NCBI GenBank assembly: GCA_000092065.1
Contig: CP000584.1
Strand: one strand, 5' to 3'
Origin: Ostreococcus lucimarinus
Lineage: Eukaryota
Length of the DNA stretch: 64,000 nucleotides
Shown here: positions 31,326-57,573 of the stretch, one piece after another
Position numbering within the stretch: the first letter of the stretch is position 1
Layout: each line of letters begins with the position of its first letter
The notes under the pieces: generated by a model
Database searches by the model: none
Told to the model about the DNA's origin: nothing
The model's input: only the letters and a program-made list of their open reading frames with translations
Program-made: the position numbers and the translations under genes

Positions 31326-33668
31326 CTACTGATGGCTCGAGGACGTCGACGCGGCGAGCTCGAGCGCAGAGATGCGCTGCGCTTGGGAGTCTAACATCGC
31401 ACGGAGGTGCTGGATGCGGTCGCGGAGCTCGTCGCACTCCTCCTCGCGCTCGCCGATGACTTCGAGCGCGGCGGCGTAACGCTTCTCCAGCGCGGCGGAG
31501 ACGCCGACGGCGGCGCCGCCGTCGGCGAGCTGCTCGCTCTTCACGAGCTCGTTCGCGAGCGAGTCGCGCGTTTGTTCTAACTTTTTGATCTGGTCGTGCG
31601 CGATGTGAAGGTCGGTGTCTCGCGCGGCGAGTTGGCTCTTGAGCGCGGCTAAAGTATCGCGCACGGCAAGACTCAAGCCGGCTTCGCCGCCGGTGAGCAT
31701 GGGTGCAGGCGCGGCTTTCGCCGAGTTTTCGCTCGCGCGATCGCCATCATATTTGCTTTGTAAAGAATCCACCTCATCGCGCGCGAGTTTCAAGTCGCTC
31801 TCCAGCTTGGCCGTAGCTGCGAGCATTTCGGCGCGTTCTCGATCCCACGTCTCGCCGAGCTGCTTATGCTTACCACGCTCTTGTGCGAGCAATTGCTTCA
31901 CCTTAGACTCGCGTTCGCGAGCCTCTTCTTCCACCACGGAGAGTCGACCCTCTTGTTCCGCGAAAGATTCACTAAATTTGGCCGATTTGACTGCCTCCGC
32001 CGAGGCTTTCGCACGCTGCACCTCGAGCTCCGCGTTCAAGGCGTCAATTTCCGCCTTAAGCTTCTCTGCTCGATTCATCGCGATTTGCGTATCCTTCATC
32101 GCCGACATCTTTTCATCTATAGCCGTCGCTTCGCGCTCTGCAGCTGCTTCTGCGCGCGATTCGGCGTCAGCCAGGCGCAAAGCCGACGCCCTCTCTGTCG
32201 CGGTCCATGCGTCGGCGTTCTCCGTCGCCTGCAGCTGCAACGCCTCAATCTGCCGAAGCAACGGACGCGTGCTTTCGGGCATTCTCCTGAGTAACTCATC
32301 GTGACTACTCTCTGCGAGCTGACAACGCTCTTCGACGGCAGCTAGATCGTTCTTGAACCTTTCCTCCTGGCGCTCCAAAGCCGCGCTCGAGCGTTGCAAC
32401 GAATGTTGCAAGTCGGCGAGTTGATCCTTCAGACTCTGCTCGCGTTCGCGCACAATCTTGAGCTCGCTCGCCAAATCCTCGCTTCGCGCCACATTAGCCT
32501 TGATCTCAACATCCGTTAGCTCTTCTTTCGCTTGCGCCAATTTCGATAAATAATACTCCTTTTGCTCGTTCAATTGCGTCGTCAGACGAGTCTTATCCGC
32601 CACGTATTCATCGCGCGCGGCTTTCAACTCCGCCGTGAGCTTGCTGATGGACGCGCCTTTGCTTTCGAGCTCCCTGCTTAGTCCTTGATGGGCCTCTTCA
32701 CGCTCTCTCAAATCTTTTCTAAGCTTTTTAATGATACCTTCCATCTCCGCCTGCTTCTTACTGAGCGCCTCGCCCTCTGCCATGACTTCGTTGATAATTT
32801 CATCCTTCTCCTTGACGAGCATGTCCGCTCCAGCGCCGGCTTCGGCTTGTTTTCTAAGAGTCTTGCACTGCTCTGTGAGCTCGCGCACTCGAGCTTCGGC
32901 ATCGGCGAGCGACTCTTCAGCCTGCGCCGCGCGCTCGGCGTATTCTTCCTGTTCGGCGTCCAACGACGCCCGTTGTTCCGCTCGCCTGGCGATTTCGTCT
33001 TCTCGCGCGGTGAGCTGCTTTCTCACCGCTTTAAGCTCCTTCAACGTCGCCTCTAAACGACTACCATCGATGTCGGGTTCGATTGTATCCTCGTCATCGC
33101 TCTCGTCCGCCTTATCAACCGCTTTTGGCGCCGCTTTCGGCGCCGCTTTCGGCGCCGCTTTCGGCGCCACTTTCGGCGCCGCTTTCGGCGCCACTTTCGG
33201 CGCCGCTTTCGGTGCCACTTTCGGCGTCGCTTTCGGCGTCGCTTTCGGCGCCGCTTTCGGCGTCGCTTTCGGCGCCGCTTTTTCTTTCACCTCGTGCGTT
33301 TTCTCCGTCGCCGGCGCGTTCCCCGCGACGGCGTCTCCCTCGTCCTTTGCGCTCGTCCCGCTCGTCCCGCTCGTCGTCCCCGTCCCCGTTCCCGTCCCCT
33401 CCTTCATCCCGAACGCCTCGTCCGCGCGCTGTTCGAGCTCTTTCGCCGCCTCGCTCGCCCGCTCCGCGATCGTCTCCGCCATCGCCCGCACGTCGACGCT
33501 GTTCAACTCTTGCAGCGCCTCGCTCGCCTTGGCGCTGATCGTCGTCGTGAGCGAATCGAAGCTCCACTCCTGCGTGTTCCACCCCTGGGCGACGTTCCCG
33601 AACGCGCTCGCGTACGACGTCGACGCGGCGTCGTCGACCGCGTCATCGCGCGTCGGTGCGTCGCCCAT
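31326..33668 (-). CDS. TMF/ARA160-like golgin (TATA element modulatory factor family), long coiled-coil
   Basis: KEKDEIINEVMAEGEALSKKQAEMEGIIKKLRKDLRE resembles the conserved TMF coiled-coil segment, and the C-terminal TMF_TATA_bd-like segment is LEKRYAAALEVIGEREEECDELRDRIQHLRAMLDSQ. The first ATG in ORF 31326..33902 is at 33668. It contains a (PKAA)n tandem repeat. Confidence 0.65.
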   Translation of the reverse strand: MGDAPTRDDAVDDAASTSYASAFGNVAQGWNTQEWSFDSLTTTISAKASEALQELNSVDVRAMAETIAERASEAAKELEQRADEAFGMKEGTGTGTGTTSGTSGTSAKDEGDAVAGNAPATEKTHEVKEKAAPKATPKAAPKATPKATPKVAPKAAPKVAPKAAPKVAPKAAPKAAPKAAPKAVDKADESDDEDTIEPDIDGSRLEATLKELKAVRKQLTAREDEIARRAEQRASLDAEQEEYAERAAQAEESLADAEARVRELTEQCKTLRKQAEAGAGADMLVKEKDEIINEVMAEGEALSKKQAEMEGIIKKLRKDLREREEAHQGLSRELESKGASISKLTAELKAARDEYVADKTRLTTQLNEQKEYYLSKLAQAKEELTDVEIKANVARSEDLASELKIVREREQSLKDQLADLQHSLQRSSAALERQEERFKNDLAAVEERCQLAESSHDELLRRMPESTRPLLRQIEALQLQATENADAWTATERASALRLADAESRAEAAAEREATAIDEKMSAMKDTQIAMNRAEKLKAEIDALNAELEVQRAKASAEAVKSAKFSESFAEQEGRLSVVEEEARERESKVKQLLAQERGKHKQLGETWDRERAEMLAATAKLESDLKLARDEVDSLQSKYDGDRASENSAKAAPAPMLTGGEAGLSLAVRDTLAALKSQLAARDTDLHIAHDQIKKLEQTRDSLANELVKSEQLADGGAAVGVSAALEKRYAAALEVIGEREEECDELRDRIQHLRAMLDSQAQRISALELAASTSSSHQ
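33126..33283. repeat. 12-bp tandem repeat (GCGCCGCTTTCG-like) x about 13 inside TMF-like CDS, encoding (PKAA/PKAT/PKVA)n on the minus strand
   Basis: It is directly visible as ggcgccgctttcggcgccgctttcggcgccactttcggc... and corresponds to KAAPKATPKAAPKATPKATPKVAPKAAPKVAPKAAPKVAPKAAPKAAPKAAPKAV in the protein. Confidence 0.9.
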
Positions 33669-33778
33669 TCGAGGCGACGCGCGCGACGAACGCGTCGCGA
33701 TGTGTCCCGAGGCGCGCGTCGTTCGTCCGCACTGACGCGCGCGCGCGAGCGCACGAGGCCGCGTCGACGCGCGCGACG

Positions 33779-34423
33779 ATGGACGCGGTCGACGGTGACG
33801 CCGCGCGCGCCGTCCGCGGCGCGCGATTGCCCGAGCGCGCGCGCGTGACGCGCGCGAACGCCGAACGGTTGGGGACGGAGCAACAGTTTTGGTGCACGAC
33901 AAAGTGTTTCGTGCGCGACGTGCTCGAGGCGCGAGAGATCGCGATCGTGGACGACGCGAGCGATGGGGGCGAAGGCGTGGACGATGGACGGGCGAGCGAG
34001 CTGTACGAGATGCGAGGACGGGCGAGCGAGGGCGAGGGGGACGGGACGAAGGCGAGCGAGACGAAGGCGAGCTTCGTCGCGCGGCGGGTCGAAGTGTGTG
34101 GATTCGTGGTGGAGAAACGACGAAGGAAGGATTCGAAGGTGATATTTACCGTGGATGATGGGTCGGGGTGCGTGGAGTGCGTGGTGTGGACGCAAGATGG
34201 TGACGCGGTGTCGGGCGAGCAGATGGAGTTGTTCGGCATCGCGAGCACGGCGGACGGAGCGGCGGCGGTGGCGCGGGACATACGGGTCGGGAGCCTGGCT
34301 CGAGTGCAAGGGCGGATACGAGACTGGAACGGGCGTCGTCAAATCAACGCGACCGCGGTGCAAGTCGATCTCGATCCGAACGAGGAATTACTCTTCTGGC
34401 TCGACGCGTCACTCGAAATCTAG
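33779..34423 (+). CDS. STN1: CST complex subunit STN1, short plant-type OB-fold protein
   Basis: VEVCGFVVEKRRRKDSKVIFTVDDGSGCVECVVWTQD ... SLARVQGRIRDWNGRRQINATAVQVDLDPNEELLFWLD aligns by eye with plant STN1 (VDDGTGCVTCVMW ... ARVRGRV...ERDPNAEILHWLE). The first ATG in ORF 33656..34423 is at 33779. Confidence 0.75.
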   Translation: MDAVDGDAARAVRGARLPERARVTRANAERLGTEQQFWCTTKCFVRDVLEAREIAIVDDASDGGEGVDDGRASELYEMRGRASEGEGDGTKASETKASFVARRVEVCGFVVEKRRRKDSKVIFTVDDGSGCVECVVWTQDGDAVSGEQMELFGIASTADGAAAVARDIRVGSLARVQGRIRDWNGRRQINATAVQVDLDPNEELLFWLDASLEI

Positions 34424-34540: not shown

Positions 34541-37500
34541 TTACTCTGGTTTGAGACTCTCTGGGGAGGAGCCATTGTCTTCGTCGCTGCCAGCTCTAGC
34601 CTCTGCCCTTGACCGTCTTCGGAACACTCCTTGAGCAGACGAAAGCCAGCCAGTTAAAATACTCGCCGACGCCGTGCTGAGTGTTTTTGGACGTCTCGTA
34701 TCGAATGCCAACTCCGGATCGTCCGATGACTCAAGATCGGAAGAGCTACCAGAGTCGGAAGTGAGCGCTTGGCGTTTTGGGCCTCCGGACAGCGGCGTAT
34801 TCGCGAGGCTCATTTCCTTTTCTGCGCGCGAGCGTTGCAACCATTGACTCATCACCGAAGCAGCCACGTAAGAAACTGGTTGGCGTTCTGGTGAGGCGGA
34901 ATCACTGGACAACTGAGAAGACGAATCACCGGAATCATCCGAAAGATTCGCTTTCGGTGCAGACGGAGGCACGCTTGCGCGCATCTCTCTCGCTCTCGTC
35001 AACCAGTCTCGCATGACCATCTTTGAAGTTTGACTCATGTGCTCAGTCGTGGCGTACTTGGGTTCTGTATCAGTGTCACTTTCCGACGAGAAGTCAGTCG
35101 AAGAGAACACAGCAGTATTCGTGAGCGACGATTGTCTGTTTGCACGAAGTTGCTTAACCGCAGCCAACCAACCCGTAAGGGCGGCAGAAGAAGCTTCGGA
35201 AAGATTGACAGGCGGGAACCGTTGGAGACCAGCCTCTGTCTCACTTTCAGACGTATCAGAGAGCATGCGGAGATTTACTCCGCGTCCAGATGCTCTCGAA
35301 GCGGCGTGTGTGAGCCATATTCGCATGGCTGCTTCAGCACCCACTGATAGCTTCACTTCTCCGAAGTCTTCTTCCATATCCGAGTCTGACTCTGACATCT
35401 CACCAGCCTTCATTCTACGACGCACAGCTTTTCCGAGTTTCAGCCGCCTTGCAGTACGAGGAGATAGAATTTCTTGTAACTGATCAATGACCCAGTCCCT
35501 ATTCTTTGACATGAAAAGATGGCGGAACTGATCACTCGTGAGGTCGGCCGTCGTGACATCCATCGTTTGGAGGCTGTCGCCACCGCTATCCTCAATCACG
35601 GCTGCCATTTTAGGTACGAAAATGGAAGAAAAATCCTCATCAAGAGAATCCTCGATGATGATTTCCCCAGACGTGATCGAAGAAGTGATTCGCCAGAGGC
35701 CGAAGTGATTTGCCAAGAGGAGGGCGAGACGCTTTGCCGTGTAAGATGCGCCGAGAACCATGAGAACACAAGCCCAGAAGAGGATATCTTCAAACATGTT
35801 GTAGTTTGCTCGGAGCATCATGGAGAGAGCGAGGACGAACAAGAAAGATCCCGAGCCGCCGAGCGCAAGCACAAAGTAGAACTGACTCGAGAAGCACATT
35901 TGATCAATCGCGCGAAGACCGGGGTCAATTGATTCATCGTAAACGCGTTCGAAACCTTTCCATCGCGACGTACGATTGATGAATCGATATCGAGCGTACT
36001 TCAAATACTCGTACACCTTCCAGCCATGGAACAATTCCTGAATGTTGAAAGTTATGATGTCCATGACAATCCAGAACGGAATAATCACGACAGAGAAGAG
36101 AAGATAAATCAAAAGATCCTTCTTTCTGAAACCGTACAGGTACGACAGTCTCAGCTGGTCGTTGAAATCCCAGAAAAAGAAAATGAAGAAAGGCGTCATG
36201 TAGTTAACAGCCGTGTTTACGCCGTAAGCGGCGAGGAAGCCCATTAAATCTTCGACCAACGTATCTTCTGCATCGATTTTTTCCTCTACTTCGACGTCAT
36301 CGTCGTCACCAAAGTTAAATGGTAACAAATTCATGATGTAGTTCACGACTGCGCTGATTTTGTCTGGGAGTACGAGGGCGCAGTACGCGATGAACGCATC
36401 AAGATATACGTACTCGACCATACCCATGATAGTCTCGAAAAAGAAACCAAGGGTGAAATCTGTAAAGTCATCGGCTCCGATCGTCGCAACGCCAACGGCT
36501 GAAGCAAGTACGACCGATACTGGAGCGAGTAAGAAAGCTTCTCCCAACGCGGTTTCTATCTGCATTTCCATGATTACGTGAGCGACCTTCAAGAGGAAGA
36601 AAATGGTAAAGAACTGGACACCGAACGTATCAGTAAACGAGAACTCAATCAAGAAGACATTTGTCACGTTAACTAAGATATTCATCAAAACGAAATGACT
36701 TCGTTTCCAGACTTCTGGTTTGAACATCACTTCATCGACGTAGCGCTCGTCCTCCAATTCCTTCTCTTCTTCGTCTTTCAGTTCGGCAGGGACTAAGATT
36801 TCGGCGGCGCATCCCATCATATACATACCAGCTGTCAAAAAGCAGACTGCGTATCGACCAGCGGTCGCTTTTTCTACGACAGCTGGATCGATTTCACGGC
36901 CGATATTATCAATACTGATCGGGAACTCTGTAATGATTGGGAACGCGACAAACACGGCCCGGAGTCCGAACTGCGCTGTCGCAAACGGTAACATGCCGAG
37001 CGTGACACCCATCAGAGGTGGACCAATCATTATTCGAAGATATGGTAAGAATCGGAATCTCGGTGGTTCTTTCAATAGTGTGAAGATTCTCACGACCACC
37101 CACACAGAAAAGATCAACAACACGACGAGCATTCCGATCGCAAAGAAAAGCGCCAAGTAGAACAGGAAATCAAAAGCAAAGAAATTGAGCAAATCGAACC
37201 AACCTAGCGCTGATACCGCCACGCTAAGCGTGTAAGTACCATCGTGAGCCGTAGCGGATACGTATTCGTCCATCGTCACCGTGGCCGCGATGATTCGTTT
37301 GTCTGAGTCGGTGAATTGATAGTACAAGATCTCAAATTCAACCTTCGTCGGCATCAAACCAGCCGTCAAAACGAATCCTTCGACGGGCGCAAAAATCACA
37401 GGAATATTTTCTTGCGCCGTGATATCGGCCATGTACTTCTCTTTATTTGCGGCTGGCTCCGTCTGGTCGTTCGCCAGGGCGCTTGCTTCGAAAAGAGCGT

Positions 37501-40500
37501 CTTGACTTTCAGCCTCCGCTGTCAAGTAGAACAAGGTGTCACCCTCAGCTTCGTACCAACGCTTCTTTGCTGAAGCTTCTGTGTAGGCCTCTTCATAGAA
37601 ACAATCGATGGTTAACTCGAGCTCATCTGCAACTGCTGCTTGAACTTGCGGAGAGTATTGATTGATGAAGACTGTTTCTTCTTTTGGCACCAACGTGGTC
37701 TCACCATAACTGACAAACGTGCGATCTTCGCCAAACGTGACGGGCTTGTACGGGTTTTCAGTGAGGTGCGAAAAGAAAATATGACTGTCGAATCCGCGGC
37801 AAGCAGAAAAGAAAGGCAAGTAGTCCATCGCGAACAGCGTCTGGTCAGCCGCCCACAAACCTTCATTGAGCAGATACTTTTCTTGCTCGTACACGTCTGG
37901 AAGTGAAAGAGTGATAGTTTCGTCGGTTTGGCCATCCTCGTTCACTATCACCCAATCCTCTGCTTGCGTCGACGTTAAATCAATGTGCGCTTGGCTGGGA
38001 GAATCTTCGGCTGTTAGCACGTTTTGCTGTCGCAGATATTTGAACTTCTTCCACTCCGCACCATACGTAGAGTTGTAATCGATGGCGGCACGGGCATCAA
38101 GCCTTCTACAACCAGGATCTTGGTTAATATTGGCGCACTCGAAGTAATCGGTCGACACTGATCGATACATTGTCGAGGCCACAGGAGCATTCAAGGGCGC
38201 TTGATACTCTTCGTCAATTTCGAATGGCAAAATGGCGTGCACGGAATACGTCGGCGTTGCACTTGCACGCTCTGGAAATTCGACGTCGATGCAAATACTG
38301 TTCAAGAACGACGCACGATTATCCTCTTGATATCTACCATCCAGCATTCTCAGTTCAATTCTGAAAGGCAAATCATCCAAAGCTTGAATGGATAGTTCGT
38401 GCATACCGCGTTTCCAAACGTAGTTCCCAAAAGTTGGATTCTCAACGTTGTAGCCCGTCGCAGTACCATCGCTATTTCTCGCAAACCAGAACGGCAACTC
38501 TAAAGATTCTTGAGAAGCGGGACACTTCTTTTCCTGCTCCTCACCGGCTATGACCTTCATATTCAGCCATGTTATGCCATCGCCTACATCCCATGGCGGG
38601 CATGGCACGGACTTGTATTCGCTTGCAGGGCACAAGGTGTCATCAATCACTGGATTTGTGAAAATAAGCAGCTCGTAATGTTCGCCGTACTTCAGATTTT
38701 CGTTGATTGTCCGCCAATCAAGCCTCAATTTGGCCGTATGACCTCGAGGTAGAGTGAACTTCATCAAAGGGATATTGTTCTCGTCAACGGCGGCGATGCT
38801 GTTGTCATCTGACAGAATGAATGTCGGGTTCAGGAGTTCCCAATTTTTGTTTGTGCAACTGCCCATGCCCATGTAGTCAAATGGGTCGGTGGGTCCTGTC
38901 GCGTTTGAACTAGAAGTGTTCGTCGTATCGATCTGCAATAGAGTGCGACCTGCAGCGATTTGGCTCTCTACTTCCCGAAGCCATTCAGTGTCACGACCTG
39001 TGGCGTTGATTGTTTTGTAATATGTTTTCTCAATCAAGTCAAAACTGACGGGCATGACTCTCCAGAAAGTGATCAAATCTGCAGAGCACTCGTCCAAACT
39101 TTGTGCCGACGGAGACGACGCCGTCCCTGTGGGACATCGGTTGAGCACTTGTCCAGTTCCCGTCGGACAGAAGAAGCAAGCTTGACACGGGAACTGAGTA
39201 CGCGTAGAGTAAGACGCTCCAGCGGGACAGTAGTAACCAGCGGGACATTTGTTGAAAAATTGTGTTTCCGGAGTAGTACCCGGTCCACAGAAGTATCCGT
39301 CGGGGCACTTTTGTTCGGCAATCGATGTTCGAGCGTCGCACACGTAACCCTCCGGACACAAATCCGCTTCACCTTCTGGATCGAGTTGTAAAAGAACACA
39401 CTTGGAGGCGTCGTAAGCCTCGGTGTTGTCCGCATCGCAATAAGCAGAGTACTCGTTTAACGCAGCTGTACCTTGCCCACGAGGTTTGTTATTGCTCATG
39501 CCATCAATGGCGCACACAAGTCCTGAGTTACACGGCAAACATAACGATTCTTCGGTCAAGCCAATAGATGACGACCAGGTTCCTTTCGGACACTGACGGC
39601 ACGCAATGGAGTCCCGCGCAGAGCGGAAATAACCTGCAGGACATGCGGTTGGTTTGAATGTGCCTTCGTCGACGCACTCGTAGCCTGCAGCGCATGTTAG
39701 ACACTCCTGGAACCCTTCGTAAGGCGTATAGGTGCCCGGAAGACATGTAACGGCTGCGGAGTTACCTTGTCCAGATGTGTATGAACCGCGCGGCGCTGGA
39801 ATCGGAATGTAAGTACGTTTCGGACAGTAATGACCCTCGGTACAAGGTCTCATTGGATTATATACATCCGTCGCCGATTCAGAAACCACAGTGGAATCCC
39901 CTGTAGCCCATTCGCAGAAACTTCCTTCCTTACACGGCTGCGGTTGCTTGAAAGAACCCTCCAACACGATCGAAGTTGTTACACCCTCCGTACAGAACGT
40001 CGTGGGAGGACACGGCTTTGGTCGGAAGTTGTCAACGTTCAACGCAATTGGAGATGCATCGACAATAGCTGCCACATCAATAATTGCGAGAGGATCACGG
40101 GTGACGGTATTTTCAAGGCAGTAATGTCCGGCGGGACAACGGGTACCTGCGACGGCCAGACCTTCAGTGTCGCACACGAAGCCGGGTGTGCACACTTCGG
40201 GCGCCTCACGAGCAAAACCTGGGCAAATCGTGCCTTTTGGACATTTTTGACATGAGTCTTTGCCATAATCGGAGTTGTACTCGCCGGGAAGACATGGTTT
40301 CGGTTCGGCGTTGGCGACACCTGGACAATACATTCGCTTTGGGCATCTCAACTGCTGACCAGGAGGACAGTAATGTCCTGGAGGACACGGACCTACGCCT
40401 TGCGGTGTGATAGAACCAGGTTCACAAACATAACCGGCATAGCACTGCTGTGGAGTGGTGAAATTGTATGCGATACTCGCACTCGACACAACACCGGCGG

Positions 40501-43500
40501 TACAGTACATGCCAAATGGACAAGGTAGTGGCCGCTCGGCAACAGTGAAGTCAGTAAAGTTACTCGTTCGCGTACCCTCCAAACAATAATGGCCGGGTGG
40601 ACATAGTTTATTCGGTACAGTAAGGCCAGTAGAGTCACATACCGCACCCCTCGGACAAATGATCGGGATCATTGAGCCCGCGTCTGGCGAAATGTAGCCC
40701 ACTGGCGTTGGAAGACAGTCAGCTTGGCCGGTTCTGGGTTGGAACGTCCCTGGCGGGCATAAGGTGAAATTTTTTCCACCGCCACAGAATGCGCCTCGTG
40801 GACATAAAATGGCTTCACTTTCAGGGCAGTACGATCCAGACGGACATTGTGCGAAATGGAACAGCAGTCGCTGTTCTGAAAAGTCGACTCCATTTGTGGA
40901 GACTTCGACGAACACTGTACGAGTGCCACTTTGCTCCACGCCCGCAACACAAAGAATAGATCTGGATGACAAGAAAGTTGCTGTCGCAAGCTCTTGTCCA
41001 AATCGACACGTTAAACTGGAAGTATTGACAAAATTTGAACCAGTTATGAAAATGGGGCTTCGACTACCGCTCAGACCAACTTTCGGAATGATACCAGAAA
41101 TTTTTGGTGGAACTTGGTAGACAAACGTTGCCGTGTTGATGGTCGAAAGATCACGATCGTTCCCAGAAATGCTAATATCTGCAATTCCTAATCCTCGTGC
41201 CGGCGTGATGCACGTAAGGACGTCGCTTTGAGTGTTGTATGACGTAATTGGAAAGAAGGTGCCGATGCGGCAACTGTAACGCGCGCCATCGGTCAGGCCA
41301 TTCACAGACACCGAGAGCGTGGTTCCACCGTTCTCCGATCCTGTCTCGGGAGACACAGCGGAAATCATCAAATCGTCAATGTACTCGAACGCGGTACCGT
41401 AACTTGAAATAAAACCCGGATCGTCACGAGGAGCCATTCCAATGCCCACTCGGCGCTCAGTAGACCAAGGTGGAGTGATGCAAAGTCCAAGCGCAGACGA
41501 CACCACGTGCGCGCTTGTTTGCTCGTTGCCAAAGTAACAATAGCCAGACTCGTGCAGATTATCTCCGTCGACATGGAGTACGGTTGTTCCGCTAGCCGTA
41601 CCAATACTAGGGTGAACATTGAGAACGACAGGTGGCATGAAAACTTCAAATCCAATCGGTGTTGCAGCGTCGGGCAAAACCATGATTTCAAGAACAGTAA
41701 AACCGAATCCAGAAGGCGGCGTGTCGCAAGTGATCGTTCGCTGATCTTCAAACGTCGCCTGCGCGACCTGTCCATGTAGTTTGCAGCCTAGGTACGCGCC
41801 GTGTGGCAAGTATATTGCACTGTTGGACATCAACTTCAACGTTGTGTCTCCGGCCGCAACGCTCCTCTTCGGCGAGACAAAAGATGGGACGAGTGGAGTG
41901 AAATATTCAAAGCTACCAACCGATGCGTAATCCTTTGAGTTGTACGTCAAAGAGCCAACAACCACAGTACCATTGAGCCCAGCAGGAGAGATGCAAGTGA
42001 CAGACGTCGACGAACGCTGTTCCGAGGTGCTGATTGGACCTATAGTGCCAAACCGACAGAAGATTTCTTGTTCGGTGGCGTCTTCCGCTAAGTTTCCAAT
42101 ATGAAAAGTGAACAGATTGCCTCCGTTTTCCGACAGATATGGGTTTTCCAGACTCTGACTAAGAAAGTCGAAGTCATCCAAATATTGGAACGCCGCAACT
42201 ATCTCGGAAATATAATTTTCATCATCTCGGGGACTGACGCCAAGCGAAACCATGGGCGAATTCCCACTGAGGACAGGAGAAGTACACACACTGAGAGCGG
42301 ACGAAATGGCGTACGCTGTGGTGTTTTGATCACCGAAATGACAGAAACTTGACTCGTGCAAGTGTTCTCCGGCAACGTGGATCACGGAGGATCCACTGTA
42401 GAACCCGACCGACGGAACCATGCTTGTGACAACAGGCGGCACAAAGATGTCAAAGTCTACCCCGACGCCGTCGAGACCTATGGTAGATAACTCCACAAAT
42501 CCCGCCGAAAGAATCGGAACGGGGCAGCTGAGCGTGTATCTTACACAGTCTCTTTGATTACCGCCGGAACACGTAGATGTCCGAACAGCCTGTGACGATA
42601 GAACGGGAAATAACCCAAACATGCATCCCTTTGGCGTCGAGCTCAAACTGTGCCCGGTGGCTTCAAGGACTACGTCAGCAAGGCCCTCGTTCGAAGCTCT
42701 CCCTGGCACGACATGCATGACCGTCATATCCTCCTCGGAATAAATCAAGACAAAATTGGTAAAGTAAGAAGACGTCAAGTGAGATGACAGCCAGACCCGG
42801 ATGGCATCGGGCGACGTCGGTGAGTGCGCCGGAGTCACGAATTCAAAGCTACTTCCCGAGCTTCGCACATACATCGGGCCGATTGAGCCCACGTGTCCAG
42901 CGGGCGCATCCACCAGTTCTTCAAGTATTCCGACAGAAGTTAGCGAGGAAATTTGTATCGTGTCACCTCCAGAGGTTGCCACCGTTTCCGCGGAGATATC
43001 CAGAAGAGTCGGAGCGGGAATGTAACTGATGGACGTTGTACCCATTTCGTCGTAGTTCAAGCTTCCACCAGTATCGACGTATAACGCAATTCTTCCTTGG
43101 TTATTGGAGAAGTACGGTGACTCGCACGTCACCAAGGTCGACGAATGAACTTTTGCGGGCACATTTACGTCGCCAAAGTAGCACTGCACTGACCCACCAG
43201 CCACATCGAGCAAATCTTCACCACTGATAGTGACTAATTCACCACCAGAATTACTGATCAAAGTTGGGTATGCTGACACTAGAATCGGATCAGGTTGGAA
43301 TAAGAACAACGAATCGGTTTCATCTTTCCCAGGTGAGGCACCTAAACTTATTTGAGCGAACCCTGGGGCGTACGCGGGCATGATACACTCAGATACATAA
43401 GGATTCGTGGAGATGGACGTGGCTGAGACGAAAAATCCAGCGACGTGACACTTAATAGAAGTTTCCATTGGGTTTTCATGGAGAATACGAACAGCAACGC

Positions 43501-46500
43501 CTCCACTCACGGATCCGAATGACGGATACACCGCCGAGGAAGACACTTCGACGGTTTCGTGATAGCTGAAAGGTTGTTTCACCGACGTGAACATCTCACC
43601 GAATAAACGAGCATACATGGGAATGGTACCCGCGATGTGCGCGGGAACTCGACATTCTAGACCATTCCCGGTCAGTTGTCCGATGATGGGACCAAGACTT
43701 CCGAATTTGCAAGCACAATTGTCAAATGATTGCTGATACGGATCAACTTTGTAGTAAATTATCGCAATAGACCCTCCATCTTCGTTACTTTCTTGAGGCG
43801 ACACGTGTAAAGGATTATCTTCCTCCTTGATGTACTCAAAGACAATACCAGAGGACTCAAATTCATCGTCCGTGAGGCTTGTTGAACCACTTGACAGAAA
43901 ACTGAGAACTGCAGAGCCAGCATCATTCGCTGGTTGCTCGATCACAACTAGAGCACTTGACACAAACTGTACCGGAGAGAATTTGGTGCTTCCAAAAACA
44001 AACTTGTTGTGCGTGACTTCGTTGAAGTGAACGCCAGTCAATTTTATTATTTCTCCTCCAGCTTCTGCGCCATCATACGGCTGCAAATTAGTAATCTGCG
44101 CATGAGGTTCATAACTGAGCTGTATTTGCGAAGAATCCCACACGCTCACGTCGTGAATTTGCACCCCAACAGCGACAAAACCGGAGCTGTGCGCTGGAGC
44201 GAGACACAAAACGAGACCGTTTGACTCCACTTTTGCAACTGCCGCGTGAAGATCGAACACGCAAGCGACTGGTAAGGTCGCTAGCGAAGAAGGCAATGTG
44301 CTCGGTGAAATCATAAGCTCCACCAAAGATCCCCCATCTAACGATACCGACGTGCGGTATGGCTCAGTGAGATCTATGTTGGCAATGTATTCGTACAGAA
44401 GTGTCGTCGCCGCATTGTCACGCTCATTCATAGCCACAGTCACTGGAACTGTCGCAGGTGAATGGGCAGGCAGGATACATTCAACTTTTTCGGATGAACC
44501 CTGCGTAAGGGAAATTCCAGAGATCGTACCAACTTTGCATGATATTACGCTCAAATCCGTGGAAAAGTCTCCATAGATGTCAACCACAGCACCGCCGGCT
44601 TCCAATCCTCGCGCAGCTGGGTGATCTATTTCGAGTCCAGGAAGAAGAATGAAAGTTATTTGGAAATCCGCACTTTGTTCCACGTCGTTGTATACAAGTT
44701 GTAAAGCAGTGTCATCCTTGCCTTCGGGCGTCACACACACGACGAGCGCCGAAGAAATTACGTGTATAGATGACTTTGCAGTACCTGCACTTGTCGTGTA
44801 ACCGCACGAAGCACTGTAATTCGTACCGCCCCAGATCATATTGGATCCCGTCACATATACCAAACTTCCCCCAATCGTTGGGAATGTGAGTGGAGTCGCT
44901 CTCATGAGTTTCGGTTTGGCAACATAATGGAACTCGAGAGCTGACGACGTAAAATCTTGCAAGTTCATAGAGACATCGATCACCGTGAATCCAGATTTAG
45001 ACGCCGGAGCATTGCAAACAGTATTTGATCCGAAGATGAATGCATTCGTAGTGGTTGAACCAAACCTACACGAAAGATGACTTCCGTAGAAGTTTTCACC
45101 GAACAAAGTCACCGAGGTGCCGCCGGTAACAAAACTCGATTCTGGTATTGTCATTGATGACAACGTCGCGATCACCTTGTACTCAAATGTAGCCGCCGAT
45201 TGACTCAGCTTAATTTCAAACGCAGTATTGTGATGGAACACGTTGACTGGGACTGAACCTGCGCTGTGCGCAGGAGAGACGCAAGACGCCGCATTCATGG
45301 ACAACCATCGTCCAAGAACATTCGAAATGGTTCCAATCCTGAAAGCCAGTGAAACGTCGTTTCGAAACGCCAGGCCATCAAATGAAAGAATAGTACCACC
45401 TTGAGACGGCCCAGTCTTGGGAACTACCCGATGTATGACCGAGGAAGATGTGTTCATGAACTCAAACGGTAAGCCTGGAACCGACCAATCAAAGGCATTG
45501 TTTGAGACTGCAAGGTCATGGTATCCGACCTCCATGCTCGGAGATTCGCACATCACTTGCGAGGGTGAAATAAACGCTGCACGGAATGGAGCTAATGTAC
45601 CGAATCGACACAAAGAAGAGGGAGAAAAGTGATCACCATACACCACGATGGCTGTCCCACCGATGGACGGGCCAGACAGCGGAAGCAAGTGATCCAGCAA
45701 CACCTTCCTCGTTAAAATATCATTTGCATCGGTACTGGAGACGATGTTATTGCCGGAGCTATCGACAATTCTTATATCGTACTCGTTTACGCCGTTGTTA
45801 TCTTCGGGTAACCCACAGAGAACAGAACCATCGCTGAGGACGATGCCTGGGACCAAGGCGTCACCATTTCCAAGATTGCAATACACATCTTGACCAGGAA
45901 CAAATCCCGTACCAGTCACAGTTGCGGTATTATTATCGTTGTTTATAATTGTGGTCACTGACGCTTCAGTAGTATACAAGAAAGTCACCTGCGGACCATC
46001 AGCAAACATGGCGCCGAACTCGCTGACCATGCCGATGTCAAAATTCACCCAACCCTCTACGTGCGCAGGCGCTAGGCACCTATATTCATCTGCAGCGATC
46101 CATTCGCCCACGACAGGACCAATTGAGCCAAACTTACACGCGAGATCGTGTGAATCACTGAAAGAGTGCCCGGCAGCTGTGACTGTGGTACCGCCCTCGA
46201 CTAAACCCATTGATGGTGATAGAGCCGTGACCACTGGAGGTGGATCAAACAAAAATTGCGGCTTCATCGCTAATTCTACTGCGGTTGCTACTACCGATAC
46301 GTCCAGTGCATATGCACCTTCAAACATGCTAGGCGTTTCGCAAATCATCAACGCCGAGGAAACATGTGTTGCCGCTACGGTAGTCGTACCAAACCTACAG
46401 ACAGGATTGTCTTGCAGCAAATGCTCCCCTTCTATGTGGACTAATGTTCCACCTCCTATGGCACCAACTCTGGGCGCTATTCTAGTAATTTCAATCACGT

Positions 46501-47659
46501 CCTTTAATTCAAGCTGCACACTGTCTGATGCAAAGACGGAATATTGGAAATCTTGACCGTTCGAGGCCACCGCAACGGAGACAAAACCGATTCCAGCTGG
46601 AGCTACGCAGGTCACAGCGTTGGTTCCCGCGAGACCTGGAACTTTATGCGAGCCAAATTTACACGCAAGCTCTGGTGTTTGCACGACACTCTGTACCGTG
46701 ATAGACACATGGGAAGATCCTGCCGAAGAGACCTGGAACGGCGCGATTGCATCGACAACGAGACTCGATAGAAAAGTGAACGAGTTTGAGAATGTCACAT
46801 AGTCTCGATGATTCATCGAGACGCTCAGGGGCTTAGCCGCTAAAGAAGATGCAGGCGTCGCGCACTCCAATGTATTTTCATTCTGGTAAATCGCGGAGAC
46901 CTCAATTGCTCCGAAGCGACACCGCAACAAACTTGTCGGCGCAAAATTTTGTCCCGTCAGCGTCACCAACGTGCCCCCTTCGCCAGTACCGACTGCTGGA
47001 CTGACGCGACTTATCGACGGCGCGCCGATATAAATGTGCTGGACGCTACTGAAAGCCTCGAAAAAGTTTGAGGAAGTCAAAGACACGTCCACAGCGACGG
47101 TTCCCTTGTCGATCGAAGGTGATTCACACTTCATCAAACCAGACGAGACGATGTGCCCAGTAGTCGTGAGGTCGCCAAATCGACAGTACTGCGACACGTG
47201 CATATCAGCACCGAATACGTCTACGATACCTCCTGAAATACCATACACAGAGTTCACGGCGTCCACCTTGGCGCCACTCACAAATTGATATCCTTTTGTT
47301 CTCAAAAAGTCTCCCGTTTCATTGTTGAGCGCGAATTCGACGTTTACGAAACCCTCCGTGTGTGACGGTGCTGTGCATTTGACCGTCTCGGCGTCTACGT
47401 AATACGCCCGAACGAACTCATTATCAAACTTGCACGTGAGCTCTGCCCCTGGTATATTCTGAACCGCTGCCAGCTGCTTACTCGAGAGCGTGACGACTTC
47501 GCCGCCGCCCACGTGTCCCGCGCTCGGATACATCCATTCCACCTCTGGAATCTCAAATCCTCGAGCGCCGCACGCGAAGCACGCCGCCACCGTGATTAGG
47601 AATAAAACCAACCAAATCGCACGCGATGGACGAAACGACCTCATATCGCTCGTCCTCAT
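34541..47659 (-). CDS. Giant 4372-aa receptor-like membrane protein, single 13.1-kb exon: signal peptide; about 20-24 IPT/TIG-like repeats; ephrin-receptor/furin-like Cys-rich repeats; unknown ectodomain; about 11-TM domain; Ser/Asp-rich cytoplasmic tail with WLxxAR repeats
   Basis: Uninterrupted ORF 34541..47659. N-terminus: MRTSDMRSFRPSRAIWLVLFLITVAACFACGARG. There are more than 17 clearly readable repeats with the pattern C[RK]FG-x(15-20)-C-x-[AST]P, for example CRFGDLTTTGHIVSSGLMKCESPS and CKFGSHKVPGLAGTNAVTCVAPA. Cys repeats occupy about nt 39070-40850 (CQKCPKGTICPG, CPAGYFRSARDSIACRQCPKGTWSS, CPAGYYCPAG). Hydrophobic helices occupy about nt 35690-37210. The tail is at 34544-35690. Confidence 0.8.
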   Translation of the reverse strand: MRTSDMRSFRPSRAIWLVLFLITVAACFACGARGFEIPEVEWMYPSAGHVGGGEVVTLSSKQLAAVQNIPGAELTCKFDNEFVRAYYVDAETVKCTAPSHTEGFVNVEFALNNETGDFLRTKGYQFVSGAKVDAVNSVYGISGGIVDVFGADMHVSQYCRFGDLTTTGHIVSSGLMKCESPSIDKGTVAVDVSLTSSNFFEAFSSVQHIYIGAPSISRVSPAVGTGEGGTLVTLTGQNFAPTSLLRCRFGAIEVSAIYQNENTLECATPASSLAAKPLSVSMNHRDYVTFSNSFTFLSSLVVDAIAPFQVSSAGSSHVSITVQSVVQTPELACKFGSHKVPGLAGTNAVTCVAPAGIGFVSVAVASNGQDFQYSVFASDSVQLELKDVIEITRIAPRVGAIGGGTLVHIEGEHLLQDNPVCRFGTTTVAATHVSSALMICETPSMFEGAYALDVSVVATAVELAMKPQFLFDPPPVVTALSPSMGLVEGGTTVTAAGHSFSDSHDLACKFGSIGPVVGEWIAADEYRCLAPAHVEGWVNFDIGMVSEFGAMFADGPQVTFLYTTEASVTTIINNDNNTATVTGTGFVPGQDVYCNLGNGDALVPGIVLSDGSVLCGLPEDNNGVNEYDIRIVDSSGNNIVSSTDANDILTRKVLLDHLLPLSGPSIGGTAIVVYGDHFSPSSLCRFGTLAPFRAAFISPSQVMCESPSMEVGYHDLAVSNNAFDWSVPGLPFEFMNTSSSVIHRVVPKTGPSQGGTILSFDGLAFRNDVSLAFRIGTISNVLGRWLSMNAASCVSPAHSAGSVPVNVFHHNTAFEIKLSQSAATFEYKVIATLSSMTIPESSFVTGGTSVTLFGENFYGSHLSCRFGSTTTNAFIFGSNTVCNAPASKSGFTVIDVSMNLQDFTSSALEFHYVAKPKLMRATPLTFPTIGGSLVYVTGSNMIWGGTNYSASCGYTTSAGTAKSSIHVISSALVVCVTPEGKDDTALQLVYNDVEQSADFQITFILLPGLEIDHPAARGLEAGGAVVDIYGDFSTDLSVISCKVGTISGISLTQGSSEKVECILPAHSPATVPVTVAMNERDNAATTLLYEYIANIDLTEPYRTSVSLDGGSLVELMISPSTLPSSLATLPVACVFDLHAAVAKVESNGLVLCLAPAHSSGFVAVGVQIHDVSVWDSSQIQLSYEPHAQITNLQPYDGAEAGGEIIKLTGVHFNEVTHNKFVFGSTKFSPVQFVSSALVVIEQPANDAGSAVLSFLSSGSTSLTDDEFESSGIVFEYIKEEDNPLHVSPQESNEDGGSIAIIYYKVDPYQQSFDNCACKFGSLGPIIGQLTGNGLECRVPAHIAGTIPMYARLFGEMFTSVKQPFSYHETVEVSSSAVYPSFGSVSGGVAVRILHENPMETSIKCHVAGFFVSATSISTNPYVSECIMPAYAPGFAQISLGASPGKDETDSLFLFQPDPILVSAYPTLISNSGGELVTISGEDLLDVAGGSVQCYFGDVNVPAKVHSSTLVTCESPYFSNNQGRIALYVDTGGSLNYDEMGTTSISYIPAPTLLDISAETVATSGGDTIQISSLTSVGILEELVDAPAGHVGSIGPMYVRSSGSSFEFVTPAHSPTSPDAIRVWLSSHLTSSYFTNFVLIYSEEDMTVMHVVPGRASNEGLADVVLEATGHSLSSTPKGCMFGLFPVLSSQAVRTSTCSGGNQRDCVRYTLSCPVPILSAGFVELSTIGLDGVGVDFDIFVPPVVTSMVPSVGFYSGSSVIHVAGEHLHESSFCHFGDQNTTAYAISSALSVCTSPVLSGNSPMVSLGVSPRDDENYISEIVAAFQYLDDFDFLSQSLENPYLSENGGNLFTFHIGNLAEDATEQEIFCRFGTIGPISTSEQRSSTSVTCISPAGLNGTVVVGSLTYNSKDYASVGSFEYFTPLVPSFVSPKRSVAAGDTTLKLMSNSAIYLPHGAYLGCKLHGQVAQATFEDQRTITCDTPPSGFGFTVLEIMVLPDAATPIGFEVFMPPVVLNVHPSIGTASGTTVLHVDGDNLHESGYCYFGNEQTSAHVVSSALGLCITPPWSTERRVGIGMAPRDDPGFISSYGTAFEYIDDLMISAVSPETGSENGGTTLSVSVNGLTDGARYSCRIGTFFPITSYNTQSDVLTCITPARGLGIADISISGNDRDLSTINTATFVYQVPPKISGIIPKVGLSGSRSPIFITGSNFVNTSSLTCRFGQELATATFLSSRSILCVAGVEQSGTRTVFVEVSTNGVDFSEQRLLFHFAQCPSGSYCPESEAILCPRGAFCGGGKNFTLCPPGTFQPRTGQADCLPTPVGYISPDAGSMIPIICPRGAVCDSTGLTVPNKLCPPGHYCLEGTRTSNFTDFTVAERPLPCPFGMYCTAGVVSSASIAYNFTTPQQCYAGYVCEPGSITPQGVGPCPPGHYCPPGQQLRCPKRMYCPGVANAEPKPCLPGEYNSDYGKDSCQKCPKGTICPGFAREAPEVCTPGFVCDTEGLAVAGTRCPAGHYCLENTVTRDPLAIIDVAAIVDASPIALNVDNFRPKPCPPTTFCTEGVTTSIVLEGSFKQPQPCKEGSFCEWATGDSTVVSESATDVYNPMRPCTEGHYCPKRTYIPIPAPRGSYTSGQGNSAAVTCLPGTYTPYEGFQECLTCAAGYECVDEGTFKPTACPAGYFRSARDSIACRQCPKGTWSSSIGLTEESLCLPCNSGLVCAIDGMSNNKPRGQGTAALNEYSAYCDADNTEAYDASKCVLLQLDPEGEADLCPEGYVCDARTSIAEQKCPDGYFCGPGTTPETQFFNKCPAGYYCPAGASYSTRTQFPCQACFFCPTGTGQVLNRCPTGTASSPSAQSLDECSADLITFWRVMPVSFDLIEKTYYKTINATGRDTEWLREVESQIAAGRTLLQIDTTNTSSSNATGPTDPFDYMGMGSCTNKNWELLNPTFILSDDNSIAAVDENNIPLMKFTLPRGHTAKLRLDWRTINENLKYGEHYELLIFTNPVIDDTLCPASEYKSVPCPPWDVGDGITWLNMKVIAGEEQEKKCPASQESLELPFWFARNSDGTATGYNVENPTFGNYVWKRGMHELSIQALDDLPFRIELRMLDGRYQEDNRASFLNSICIDVEFPERASATPTYSVHAILPFEIDEEYQAPLNAPVASTMYRSVSTDYFECANINQDPGCRRLDARAAIDYNSTYGAEWKKFKYLRQQNVLTAEDSPSQAHIDLTSTQAEDWVIVNEDGQTDETITLSLPDVYEQEKYLLNEGLWAADQTLFAMDYLPFFSACRGFDSHIFFSHLTENPYKPVTFGEDRTFVSYGETTLVPKEETVFINQYSPQVQAAVADELELTIDCFYEEAYTEASAKKRWYEAEGDTLFYLTAEAESQDALFEASALANDQTEPAANKEKYMADITAQENIPVIFAPVEGFVLTAGLMPTKVEFEILYYQFTDSDKRIIAATVTMDEYVSATAHDGTYTLSVAVSALGWFDLLNFFAFDFLFYLALFFAIGMLVVLLIFSVWVVVRIFTLLKEPPRFRFLPYLRIMIGPPLMGVTLGMLPFATAQFGLRAVFVAFPIITEFPISIDNIGREIDPAVVEKATAGRYAVCFLTAGMYMMGCAAEILVPAELKDEEEKELEDERYVDEVMFKPEVWKRSHFVLMNILVNVTNVFLIEFSFTDTFGVQFFTIFFLLKVAHVIMEMQIETALGEAFLLAPVSVVLASAVGVATIGADDFTDFTLGFFFETIMGMVEYVYLDAFIAYCALVLPDKISAVVNYIMNLLPFNFGDDDDVEVEEKIDAEDTLVEDLMGFLAAYGVNTAVNYMTPFFIFFFWDFNDQLRLSYLYGFRKKDLLIYLLFSVVIIPFWIVMDIITFNIQELFHGWKVYEYLKYARYRFINRTSRWKGFERVYDESIDPGLRAIDQMCFSSQFYFVLALGGSGSFLFVLALSMMLRANYNMFEDILFWACVLMVLGASYTAKRLALLLANHFGLWRITSSITSGEIIIEDSLDEDFSSIFVPKMAAVIEDSGGDSLQTMDVTTADLTSDQFRHLFMSKNRDWVIDQLQEILSPRTARRLKLGKAVRRRMKAGEMSESDSDMEEDFGEVKLSVGAEAAMRIWLTHAASRASGRGVNLRMLSDTSESETEAGLQRFPPVNLSEASSAALTGWLAAVKQLRANRQSSLTNTAVFSSTDFSSESDTDTEPKYATTEHMSQTSKMVMRDWLTRAREMRASVPPSAPKANLSDDSGDSSSQLSSDSASPERQPVSYVAASVMSQWLQRSRAEKEMSLANTPLSGGPKRQALTSDSGSSSDLESSDDPELAFDTRRPKTLSTASASILTGWLSSAQGVFRRRSRAEARAGSDEDNGSSPESLKPE

Positions 47660-56490: not shown

Positions 56491-56562
56491 CGAACGCACA
56501 GAGGATTACGCCTAGAGAATTGATGAATACAAAAATACAAATTCTAGTCGTCGGATGCGCCT

Positions 56563-56622
56563 GATATGATATCGGCGTCGTCGCAGAGCTCGCGCTCCCG
56601 GCGCGACGACGCGTCACGGCTC
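56563..56622 (-). promoter_or_regulatory. Candidate SECIS element in the SelM 3' UTR (form 2, CC in place of AA)
   Basis: The minus-strand RNA is gccGUGAcgcgucgucgc-gCCgggagcgcgagcucu-gcgacgacgcc-GAuauc. It has a GUGA...GA quartet and a 10-11 bp helix. Unpaired CC lies about 11 nt 3' of the core, followed by an apical mini stem-loop. It sits 40-100 nt downstream of the TAA. Confidence 0.45.
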
Positions 56623-56662
56623 GGCGCGTTCCGCGCGACTCGTTTCCATCCCCGCGTCGCGG

Positions 56663-57084
56663 TTAAAGCTCCACGCGCGCGGTTTCCCTCTCCTGCCCCG
56701 GTCTATAAAAGCCTCGCTCGTTCAAATACGTCTCCACGCGCTCCACCGTCCACTCGCTCGTCAGTTTCGCCGTCTCCACGTTGTTCCCGCGTTCGTCTTG
56801 CATGTGCAGCGACGGCGGGTGTCCCGGCGTCCACGTCACGCCCACGCGTTCGCCGTACCCCCCGACCTCGACGACTTCCTTCAGGAACGTCTTGATCTCC
56901 GGGAGGCGGTTCAATTTTCATCCCGGGCACGATTGGAATTGCGCCCGCGCGAACGCGCCTTCGCCCGCGGTCCCGCGCGCGACGCGCGCGAGCGCGACGC
57001 ACGCGGCGACGACGCGCGCGGCGACGACGCGACGCGCGGGACGACGACGCGTCGTCGTTCGCGTCGTCGTCGCCGTCGACGTCA
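56663..57084 (-). CDS. SELENOM: Selenoprotein M (SelM) with in-frame UGA selenocysteine codon at 56918-56920 (minus strand)
   Basis: ORFs 56918..57343 and 56663..56914 are in one frame, separated only by TGA: ...RVVAARVVAACVALARVARGTAGEGAFARAQFQSCPG-U-KLNRLPEIKTFLKEVVEVGGYGERVGVTWTPGHPPSLHMQDERGNN...ERGFYRPGQE. This matches animal SelM around the redox motif (CGGUQLNRLKEVKAFV). ATG 57084 gives a signal-peptide-like N-terminus. Confidence 0.8.
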
Positions 57085-57201
57085 TCGCCGAACGCGCGAC
57101 GCGCGATGTCGCATCGTCGCGACGTCGACGTCCCGCAGACGCTCGAGCGCGCGTTATCCGCATCGGCGTCGCGGCATCGCGCGACGCGGACGCGAGGTGC
57201 G

Positions 57202-57232
57202 ATGATGCGCGCGACGACGACGACGACGACAG

Positions 57233-57265
<33 letters not shown>

Positions 57266-57573
57266 CGAAGACGCGCGCGACCACGCGCGCGACGCGACGC
57301 GCGCACGTCGCGCGCGCGAACGCATCGCCCGACGGGGACGCAACCAAAGCCGCGTGCGCGGGGTCGTGCGACTCGTGCGGGCTGGCGAAGGAGAAGATGC
57401 AGTGCGATGGGAGCGGGCGAATCCAGGGCGGGATGGGGGCGATCCCGCTGTTCGCGTGGTGGCCGATCAAGGCGTACAGACCGTGCCCGGGATTGATCGA
57501 TAACGGGGGGGTGTACACGCGAAAAGGCCAAGACGTGAACGCGATTTTGTGGGGGGAATCGGGGAAGGATTAA
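57202..57573 (+). CDS. Small Cys-rich protein with DnaJ-type zinc-finger-like motif and poly-Thr/Arg presequence (predicted organellar)
   Basis: ...ACAGSCDSCGLAKEKMQCDGSGRIQGGMGAIPLFAWWPIKAYRPCPGLIDNGGVY (CxxC...CDGSG, resembling CxxCxGxG). The upstream MMRATTTTTTATTTTTTTTTRAKTRATTR is encoded by an (ACG)n repeat. The start may instead be ATG 57106. Confidence 0.4.

Follow-up and report, generated by a model that had tools for sequence, protein, structure and literature searches.

The stretch of Ostreococcus lucimarinus DNA analysed here (64,000 nucleotides of contig CP000584.1, GenBank assembly GCA_000092065.1; hereafter the window) contains on its minus strand what is very probably a single-exon selenoprotein M gene (SelM, or SELENOM), in which the in-frame UGA at codon 56 is decoded as selenocysteine (Sec) by means of a type II selenocysteine insertion sequence (SECIS), and whose product would be a small oxidoreductase of the secretory pathway. 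The evidence consists of the reading frame, which continues on both sides of the UGA, of the family to which the product belongs, of the conservation of the TGA across lineages, of a covarying SECIS-shaped hairpin in the 3' untranslated region (UTR), and of the identity of the protein with the published SelM of this species. The SelM of O. lucimarinus has in fact been known as a selenoprotein gene since 2007 (Lobanov et al., 2007; PMC2375036).

The SelM coding sequence

The original prediction, made from the letters alone, held that two minus-strand open reading frames (ORFs) lie in the same frame, separated by a single TGA at 56918-56920, and that reading through this codon gives a protein of 140 amino acids (aa). 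The ORFs 56918..57343 and 56663..56914 are indeed listed and translated in one frame, with the TGA (56920..56918) and one AAA codon between them. Translation of 57343..56660 meets a single interruption, which is this TGA; it is preceded by MTSTATTTRTTTRRRPARRVVAARVVAACVALARVARGTAGEGAFARAQFQSCPG, and the frame then continues to RVEL and a stop codon. Around the TGA, the read-through frame reads AQFQSCPG, the TGA itself, and KLNRLPEIKTFLKEVVEVGGYGERV. The complete single-exon coding sequence occupies 56663..57085 (minus strand, 423 nt), with the ATG at 57085..57083, 140 codons, and a TAA at 56665..56663. The predicted length of the product was thus borne out, whereas the boundary of the coding sequence at 57084 proved to be one base short, the correct position being 57085.

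It should be noted that the GC content around the locus is 60-65%, and that long ORFs occur there in every frame. Because long ORFs fill all frames in GC-rich sequence, two ORFs in the same frame prove little when taken alone. What raises the observation above chance is that a Pfam domain spans the TGA, that the TGA is invariant across lineages, and that a SECIS-like hairpin is located 46 nt past the stop codon.

The ATG at 57085 is supported because the beginning of the protein (MTSTATTT... or MTTTTT...) is kept, while the frame upstream of about 57110 is broken by indels between strains. From this ATG, a Thr/Arg-rich stretch is followed by a hydrophobic stretch, VVAARVVAACVALA, and the whole segment (56972..57085, minus strand) is presumed to be a signal peptide; in the orthologues, the hydrophobic core at this position is more distinct (VLATLFCVVAVSAPALVAHA, FLLACVACVACVA and VTIALVVMSALTNA). 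At the opposite end, the KDEL-like tail R-V-E-L (56666..56677, minus strand) is presumed to be a signal for retrieval to the endoplasmic reticulum (ER). A tail in -EL (TEL, DEL, EEL, KEL or AEL) was found in 10 of the 14 family members.

Between these two termini, the in-frame TGA (codon 56; 56918..56920, minus strand) is read as Sec on the basis of the translation, of its conservation and of the alignment with published SelM proteins. It forms the last residue of a C-P-G-U redox motif of the CxxU type (residues 53-56; 56918..56929, minus strand), and SCPG-U is kept in all the orthologues.

Relationship to the SelM and Sep15 families

The read-through product had been assigned to the SelM/Sep15 family, and its redox centre had been likened to the CGG-U of animal SelM; both assignments are in agreement with the searches. 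In a Pfam run in which Cys was written for the TGA codon, the protein matched Sep15_SelM (PF08806) with E = 6.8e-17 and 61.7 bits (cut-off 26). Residues 50-126 (56708..56938, minus strand) align with profile positions 3-75 of 75, so that the match begins before the TGA (residue 56) and continues well beyond it. When all PDB sequences were searched with phmmer, the best match was mouse selenoprotein M (2A2P, E = 2.2e-07, query residues 45-130), and the CPGC of the query aligned on the CGGC of this Sec-to-Cys construct, which corresponds to CGGU in mouse SelM. At the position of CPGU, published SelM proteins have CGGU, CPGU or CSGU, and the column of U56 is occupied by U in the SelM of human, mouse, Chlamydomonas, O. 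tauri and Thalassiosira. By homology to the solved structure 2A2P, the product would be expected to adopt a thioredoxin-like fold.

Sep15 (SELENOF, 2A4H) shares PF08806 and the thioredoxin-like fold with the window SelM. Sep15 proteins have a CxU motif and an N-terminal Cys-rich domain that binds UGGT. The window protein, in contrast, has 49 residues ahead of its redox domain, with one Cys among them and without a Cys-rich N-terminal domain, and its match to 2A4H reached only E = 0.26. Because of the CxxU motif, of the missing Cys-rich domain and of the ranking of the PDB matches, the gene is identified as SelM, and its identity as Sep15 was rejected. A separate Sep15 gene of O. lucimarinus has been reported on Chr_10 (Lobanov et al., 2007; PMC2375036).

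A HMMER scan of 1.8 billion representative sequences returned 13 relatives, which fall into three groups. The relatives P0008, P0012 and P0016 are Cys forms, with SC[ASK]GC at the Sec position, and four others (P0005, P0010, P0013 and P0017) begin directly after the Sec position, as truncated Sec forms would. Two distant homologues, P0009 and P0015, have Trp in the Sec column (SC[SP]G-W-[KR]LN). Their Trp most likely stands for a TGA to which gene callers applied an alternative genetic code, and if this is the case, the two proteins are hidden selenoproteins.

Conservation of the TGA codon

The C-terminal fragment of 83 aa that follows the TGA is present on 452 metagenomic contigs. The metagenomic loci encoding this fragment, those of more distant relatives, and the window make up eight distinct lineages of Mamiellophyceae, the group to which the original prediction had ascribed the DNA and to which its source, O. 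lucimarinus CCE9901, does belong. Protein identity to the window SelM is 96% for L022, 87% for L011, 71% for L023-28, 69% for L029-34, 64% for L014, 49% for L035 and 48% for L015; the locus L012/P0003, located on a contig of 1.8x coverage with G-rich errors, was left out. Several of the orthologous loci have the PRP31 gene as a common neighbour.

All eight lineages have a TGA at the position of codon 56, and its context is xCPG-TGA-[KR]L throughout. The orthologues were checked for Cys in a stop-free frame, and neither Cys nor an open frame was found at this codon in any Mamiellophyceae orthologue retrieved. Substitutions were counted relative to the window in an ungapped block of 32 codons around the TGA, where the changes are mostly synonymous or in third position on both sides. 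Between L011 and the window, three synonymous and no non-synonymous codon changes were counted upstream of the TGA, and three and one, respectively, downstream; for L023, the corresponding figures were 4/1 upstream and 7/0 downstream. Because substitutions of the coding type are found on both sides, both flanks of the TGA appear to be translated in one frame, and the TGA itself to be kept by selection.

The SECIS element

SelM ends at 56663 and the convergent PRP31 gene has its stop at 56490, which leaves 172 nt between them. The SECIS looked for in this region was present at 56632..56553 (minus strand): the minimum free energy (MFE) fold, obtained without constraints, the comparison of strains, the covariation described below and the SECISearch pattern all point to the same hairpin, and its architecture is that of a type II SECIS. 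Helix I (GGA..GCGCC / GGCGC.UCC) leads to an internal loop which holds the core. The core extends over 56617..56571, 46 nt past the stop codon and about 300 nt past the UGA; its 5' half is G-UGA (56614..56617) and its 3' half C-GA-U (56571..56574, with the GA at 56573..56572). In such a core, GA and UGA form tandem sheared G.A pairs. Helix II is a perfect helix of 10 bp (GCGUCGUCGC / GCGACGACGC), and the apex comprises a 4-nt bulge on the 5' side (GCCG), a 5-bp mini-stem (GGAGC / GCUCU) and a GCGA tetraloop.

The element is nearly invariant between strains of the species, and orthologous elements occur at the same place in all the other lineages. In 7 of 9 orthologous 3' UTR segments, the MFE fold has the same shape of helix I, loop, helix II, bulge and mini-stem; in the nine aligned elements, GUGAC and GA of the core are both invariant (9/9). 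A G before the core is found in all but one of the O. lucimarinus SECIS elements, and a long mini-stem is likewise a hallmark of Ostreococcus (Lobanov et al., 2007; PMC2375036).

The published SECISearch rule, NTGA_(10-13 nt)_AA or CC_(15-39 nt)_GA (PMC2375036), is matched in its CC form, with spacings of 12 nt and 26 nt. Both strands of the window (128 kb) were scanned by a script for NTGA, a free base, a 10-bp helix, AA or CC at 10-13 nt, a free base, and GA. The only match in which all ten positions of the helix were paired was the SelM SECIS, and three other places reached 9/10; the probability of a chance match to the pattern in a given interval of 172 nt is about 0.1-0.5%. One of the 9/10 matches (GTGA..AA..GA at 31926..31972, minus strand) lies inside an ORF of 858 aa (31326..33902), and as a candidate SECIS it was dismissed as probably due to chance.

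Covariation was assessed on the nine SECIS elements in a structural alignment made by hand, with gaps written as N, the sequence L035 and the bulged sequences having been misplaced by MAFFT. Standard pairs fill 98.5% of the 135 cells of this alignment, compared with 28-58% in controls with the 3' partners displaced by 1-3 columns, although such pairing statistics are inflated by the fitting of the alignment to the structure, and the sample of nine related sequences is small. Five of the 16 pairs are altered on both sides (e.g. UA/CG/GC in columns 10-55, GC/AU in 9-56 and UA/GU in 13-52), and the covariation score was reached by none of 500 shuffles. The mini-stem is 100% paired across the lineages, with two of its pairs altered on both sides.

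The apical bulge (region 56583..56600, minus strand) is the part of the element in which the lineages differ. It reads GCCG in the window, GCCA in L022 and GCGA in L011, that is, in the O. lucimarinus clade, whereas the five other Mamiellophyceae lineages have kept the AAA bulge in the SelM SECIS (GAAA or GAAAAA). There is about an even chance that this reflects a recent switch from AA to CC in the SelM SECIS of the O. lucimarinus clade, the rare CC being found in mammalian SelM as well. If true, the switch would hint either at a relaxed need for AA in Ostreococcus, or at a tuning of recoding efficiency that is specific to SelM.

Gene models in public databases

The expectation that standard gene callers would mis-annotate the gene is confirmed by the models found in the databases. 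Metagenome callers split SelM into a head of 202 aa ending in ...SCPG (P0004) and a tail of 83 aa (P0001). The cluster of the 83-aa fragment contains XP_001417455.1 / ABO95748.1 / UniRef A4RVQ8, from O. lucimarinus CCE9901. The N-terminal piece of 55 aa had no exact match in the protein collection searched. This RefSeq model (P0038) is 84 aa long and consists of MRHRASR followed by IKTFLKEVVEVGG... (IKTFLK...); it is identical to SelM over the C-terminal 77 residues. MRHRASR is encoded at 57114..57094 in a different frame, and IKTFLK is encoded from 56896, so that the model is spliced around the TGA by means of a GT..AG 'intron' at 56897..57093 (minus strand), which skips the TGA, the signal peptide and the CPGU motif. 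As far as sequence comparison goes, the fact that both the domain and the coding-type conservation span the skipped stretch shows that this intron is an artefact, and that XP_001417455.1 / A4RVQ8 is a wrong, mis-spliced fragment. Because metagenome callers routinely cut the gene in two, surveys of marine picoeukaryote selenoproteins that are based on called proteins miss the active site of SelM.

Alternative explanations

A number of observations weigh against a SelM gene decoded through a SECIS. Besides the inflated pairing statistics mentioned above, no SECIS match was obtained with Rfam 15 (cmscan, E <= 10) at the locus or in L011, L013, L014 and L015; the folding energy of the 3' UTR is unexceptional in its GC-rich context when compared with shuffled sequences (z = -1.04); and the canonical unpaired AA is absent from the bulge of the window SECIS. 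In addition, the hydrophobic stretch (SelM residues 20-35) is broken by an Arg in the window strain, and the 75Se labelling that has been published is that of O. tauri, and of abundant bands only (PMC2375036). The Rfam result says little, because Rfam also misses orthologues with the textbook AAA bulge; it probably reflects insensitivity of the model to algal elements with a preceding G and a long mini-stem. Similarly, a bulge devoid of AA is a known variant and does not exclude a SECIS, because CC in place of AA is functional in the SECIS elements of human SelM, SelO and Trxr3 (Latreche et al., 2009; PMC2761289).

If the public model were correct, the intron 57093..56897 would remove the TGA, and the gene would encode an 84-aa protein (MRHRASR-IKTFLK...) without selenocysteine. 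XP_001417455.1/ABO95748.1 has exactly this intron structure, and GT and AG are indeed present at the implied borders. However, it is in the supposed intron that the family is best conserved (SCPG-U-KLNRLPE); the stretch is in frame with the downstream exon and varies by third-position changes in eight lineages, and both the Pfam domain and the alignment with 2A2P begin inside it. The 84-aa model would have neither redox centre nor signal peptide, and its first exon, of seven residues, lies in a frame that is not conserved; moreover, the invention of introns around Sec-UGA codons by gene predictors is a well-known artefact (PMC2958745). It appears very unlikely, then, that the public model is the right one. 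The same low probability attaches to the TGA being a genuine stop codon, in a pseudogene or between two unrelated ORFs of which at most one piece is made. The ab initio callers do split the locus in just this way (P0004, 202 aa, ending in ...SCPG, and P0001, 83 aa), and the negative result with Rfam goes in the same direction. In a pseudogene, however, the TGA, its flanking frame and a covarying 3' hairpin would not persist in lineages with as little as 48% protein identity, and the downstream ORF has as its sole 'start' a TTG two codons past the TGA, from which only a C-terminal piece without the active site could be made.

A further explanation is that the UGA is read through as Trp, Cys or Arg by a near-cognate or suppressor tRNA, the hairpin being a terminator or an element of RNA stability. 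The W in the Sec column of P0009 and P0015 and the missing AA motif of the SECIS could be quoted in its favour. However, the W forms are most simply explained as TGA called as Trp under another code, and the CC variant of the human selenoprotein genes cited above is functional. The hairpin, for its part, has the specific signature of a SECIS, namely NUGA facing GA, a 10-bp helix II, a bulge at 12 nt, and a mini-stem. In addition, the residue aligned with codon 56 is Sec in the SelM of animals, diatoms and Chlamydomonas, 29 selenoprotein genes have been reported from O. lucimarinus, and its close relative O. tauri has been labelled with 75Se (Lobanov et al., 2007; PMC2375036). Read-through by such a tRNA is therefore regarded as extremely improbable, and the decoding of UGA-56 as Sec remains the preferred explanation.

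Proposed mechanism

By the established eukaryotic mechanism, the kink-turn core of the SECIS (G-UGA / GA) would recruit a SECIS-binding protein and the Sec-specific elongation factor carrying Sec-tRNA, and the ribosome would place selenocysteine at UGA-56 in place of terminating. The nascent SelM would then enter the ER by means of its N-terminal signal peptide, and after the presumed cleavage of the latter the mature protein, of about 100 residues, would be retained in the ER by the -RVEL tail. There it may act as a thiol-disulfide oxidoreductase through a Cys53/Sec56 selenenylsulfide, as has been proposed for mammalian SelM. Insertion of Sec, localisation to the ER, cleavage of the signal peptide and enzymatic activity are all inferred.

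Comparison with published selenoproteins

In the survey of Lobanov et al. (2007; Genome Biol 8:R198, PMC2375036, Additional data file 2), SelM is one of the 29 selenoprotein genes of O. lucimarinus and is located on Chr_4 [249088, 248666]. It is the same gene as that in the window, with the same 423 nt, the same minus strand and the same protein (MTSTATTT...SCPGUKLNR...RVEL), and there is no biological difference between the two. The protein as printed in that file (MTSTATTT..RTTT..RRRPARRVVAARVVAACVALARVARGTAGEGAFARAQFQSCPGUKLNR LPEIKTFL... ETYLNERG.FYRPGQERETARVEL) matches the window barring machine-reading errors. The coordinate offset places the window at approximately Chr_4:192004-256003 of the assembly used there, an interval in which the published list contains no other O. 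lucimarinus selenoprotein. No tRNA gene was found within the 64-kb window.

The recovery of this gene has little discovery value, and it serves rather as a positive control, in that the recoding of a Sec-UGA was recovered from raw sequence without tools. Such cases are settled by a domain that spans the stop codon, by a TGA that is invariant while both of its flanks show substitutions of the coding type, and by a covarying SECIS in the 3' UTR. What is added to the gene described in 2007 are the coordinates of the SECIS, the covariation derived from metagenomic orthologues, and the finding that RefSeq still carries a wrong model. The uncorrected database model, along with the change from AA to CC in the bulge of the clade, is a loose end.

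Mammalian SelM (SELENOM, 2A2P) and the window SelM share a single Sep15/SelM domain, a CxxU motif at the same position, a signal peptide and a KDEL-like tail, the last two being presumed in the alga, as well as a 3' UTR SECIS with CC for AA in the apical region. The two are distantly related (phmmer E = 2.2e-07 over about 85 residues). The mammalian proteins have CGGU, a tail in -ADL/-DDL (human and mouse SelM end in -DL) and an A before the quartet of the SECIS core, whereas the algal gene has CPGU, -RVEL and a G; in addition, the long C-terminal extension of mammalian SelM is missing from the algal protein. The SelM proteins of Chlamydomonas reinhardtii (AAN32900.1) and O. tauri are green-algal SelM like that of the window, with SCPG-U-RLN[HR]LPE[VI]K; the tail of the O. 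tauri protein is -SEL.

Neighbourhood of the gene

A (CGA)n/(TCG)n array of 16.7 copies precedes the SelM start at a short distance, over 57199..57316 and especially 57212..57261. Its copy number varies among the metagenomic strains L018-L021, and indels in this region break the ORF in the SelM frame in L016 and L017. On the plus strand, the array encodes a poly-Thr run in the ORF 57106..57573 (155 aa), which is divergent from SelM, the two starts being about 20-100 bp apart, and which metagenome callers report as a gene of 120-123 aa. The protein is rich in Thr and Arg at its N-terminus and in Cys at its C-terminus (CAGSCDSCG...QCDGSGRIQGG...), and gave no Pfam match.

The region encoding the signal peptide gave sub-threshold, microRNA-like Rfam matches on both strands (56974..57100), namely mir-598 (36.5 bits, compared with a gathering threshold of 69), mir-592 and mir-B6. 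These matches fall on GC-rich imperfect repeats (CGCGCGCGA and related sequences), and being sub-threshold and on such repeats they were dismissed as artefacts of composition. At 56519..56546, where the 3' ends of SelM and PRP31 converge, there is an AT-rich motif, TAGAATTTGTATTTTTGTATTCATCAAT, which is kept in L011, the relative with 87% protein identity; it may be a polyadenylation or termination signal shared by the two genes.

Elsewhere in the window, an ORF of 4372 aa (34541..47659, minus strand) contains IPT/TIG repeats (Pfam TIG, E = 2.9e-156, 15 stretches). This ORF fills the low-GC island of the window, where the GC content is 47-51% compared with 60-65% elsewhere.

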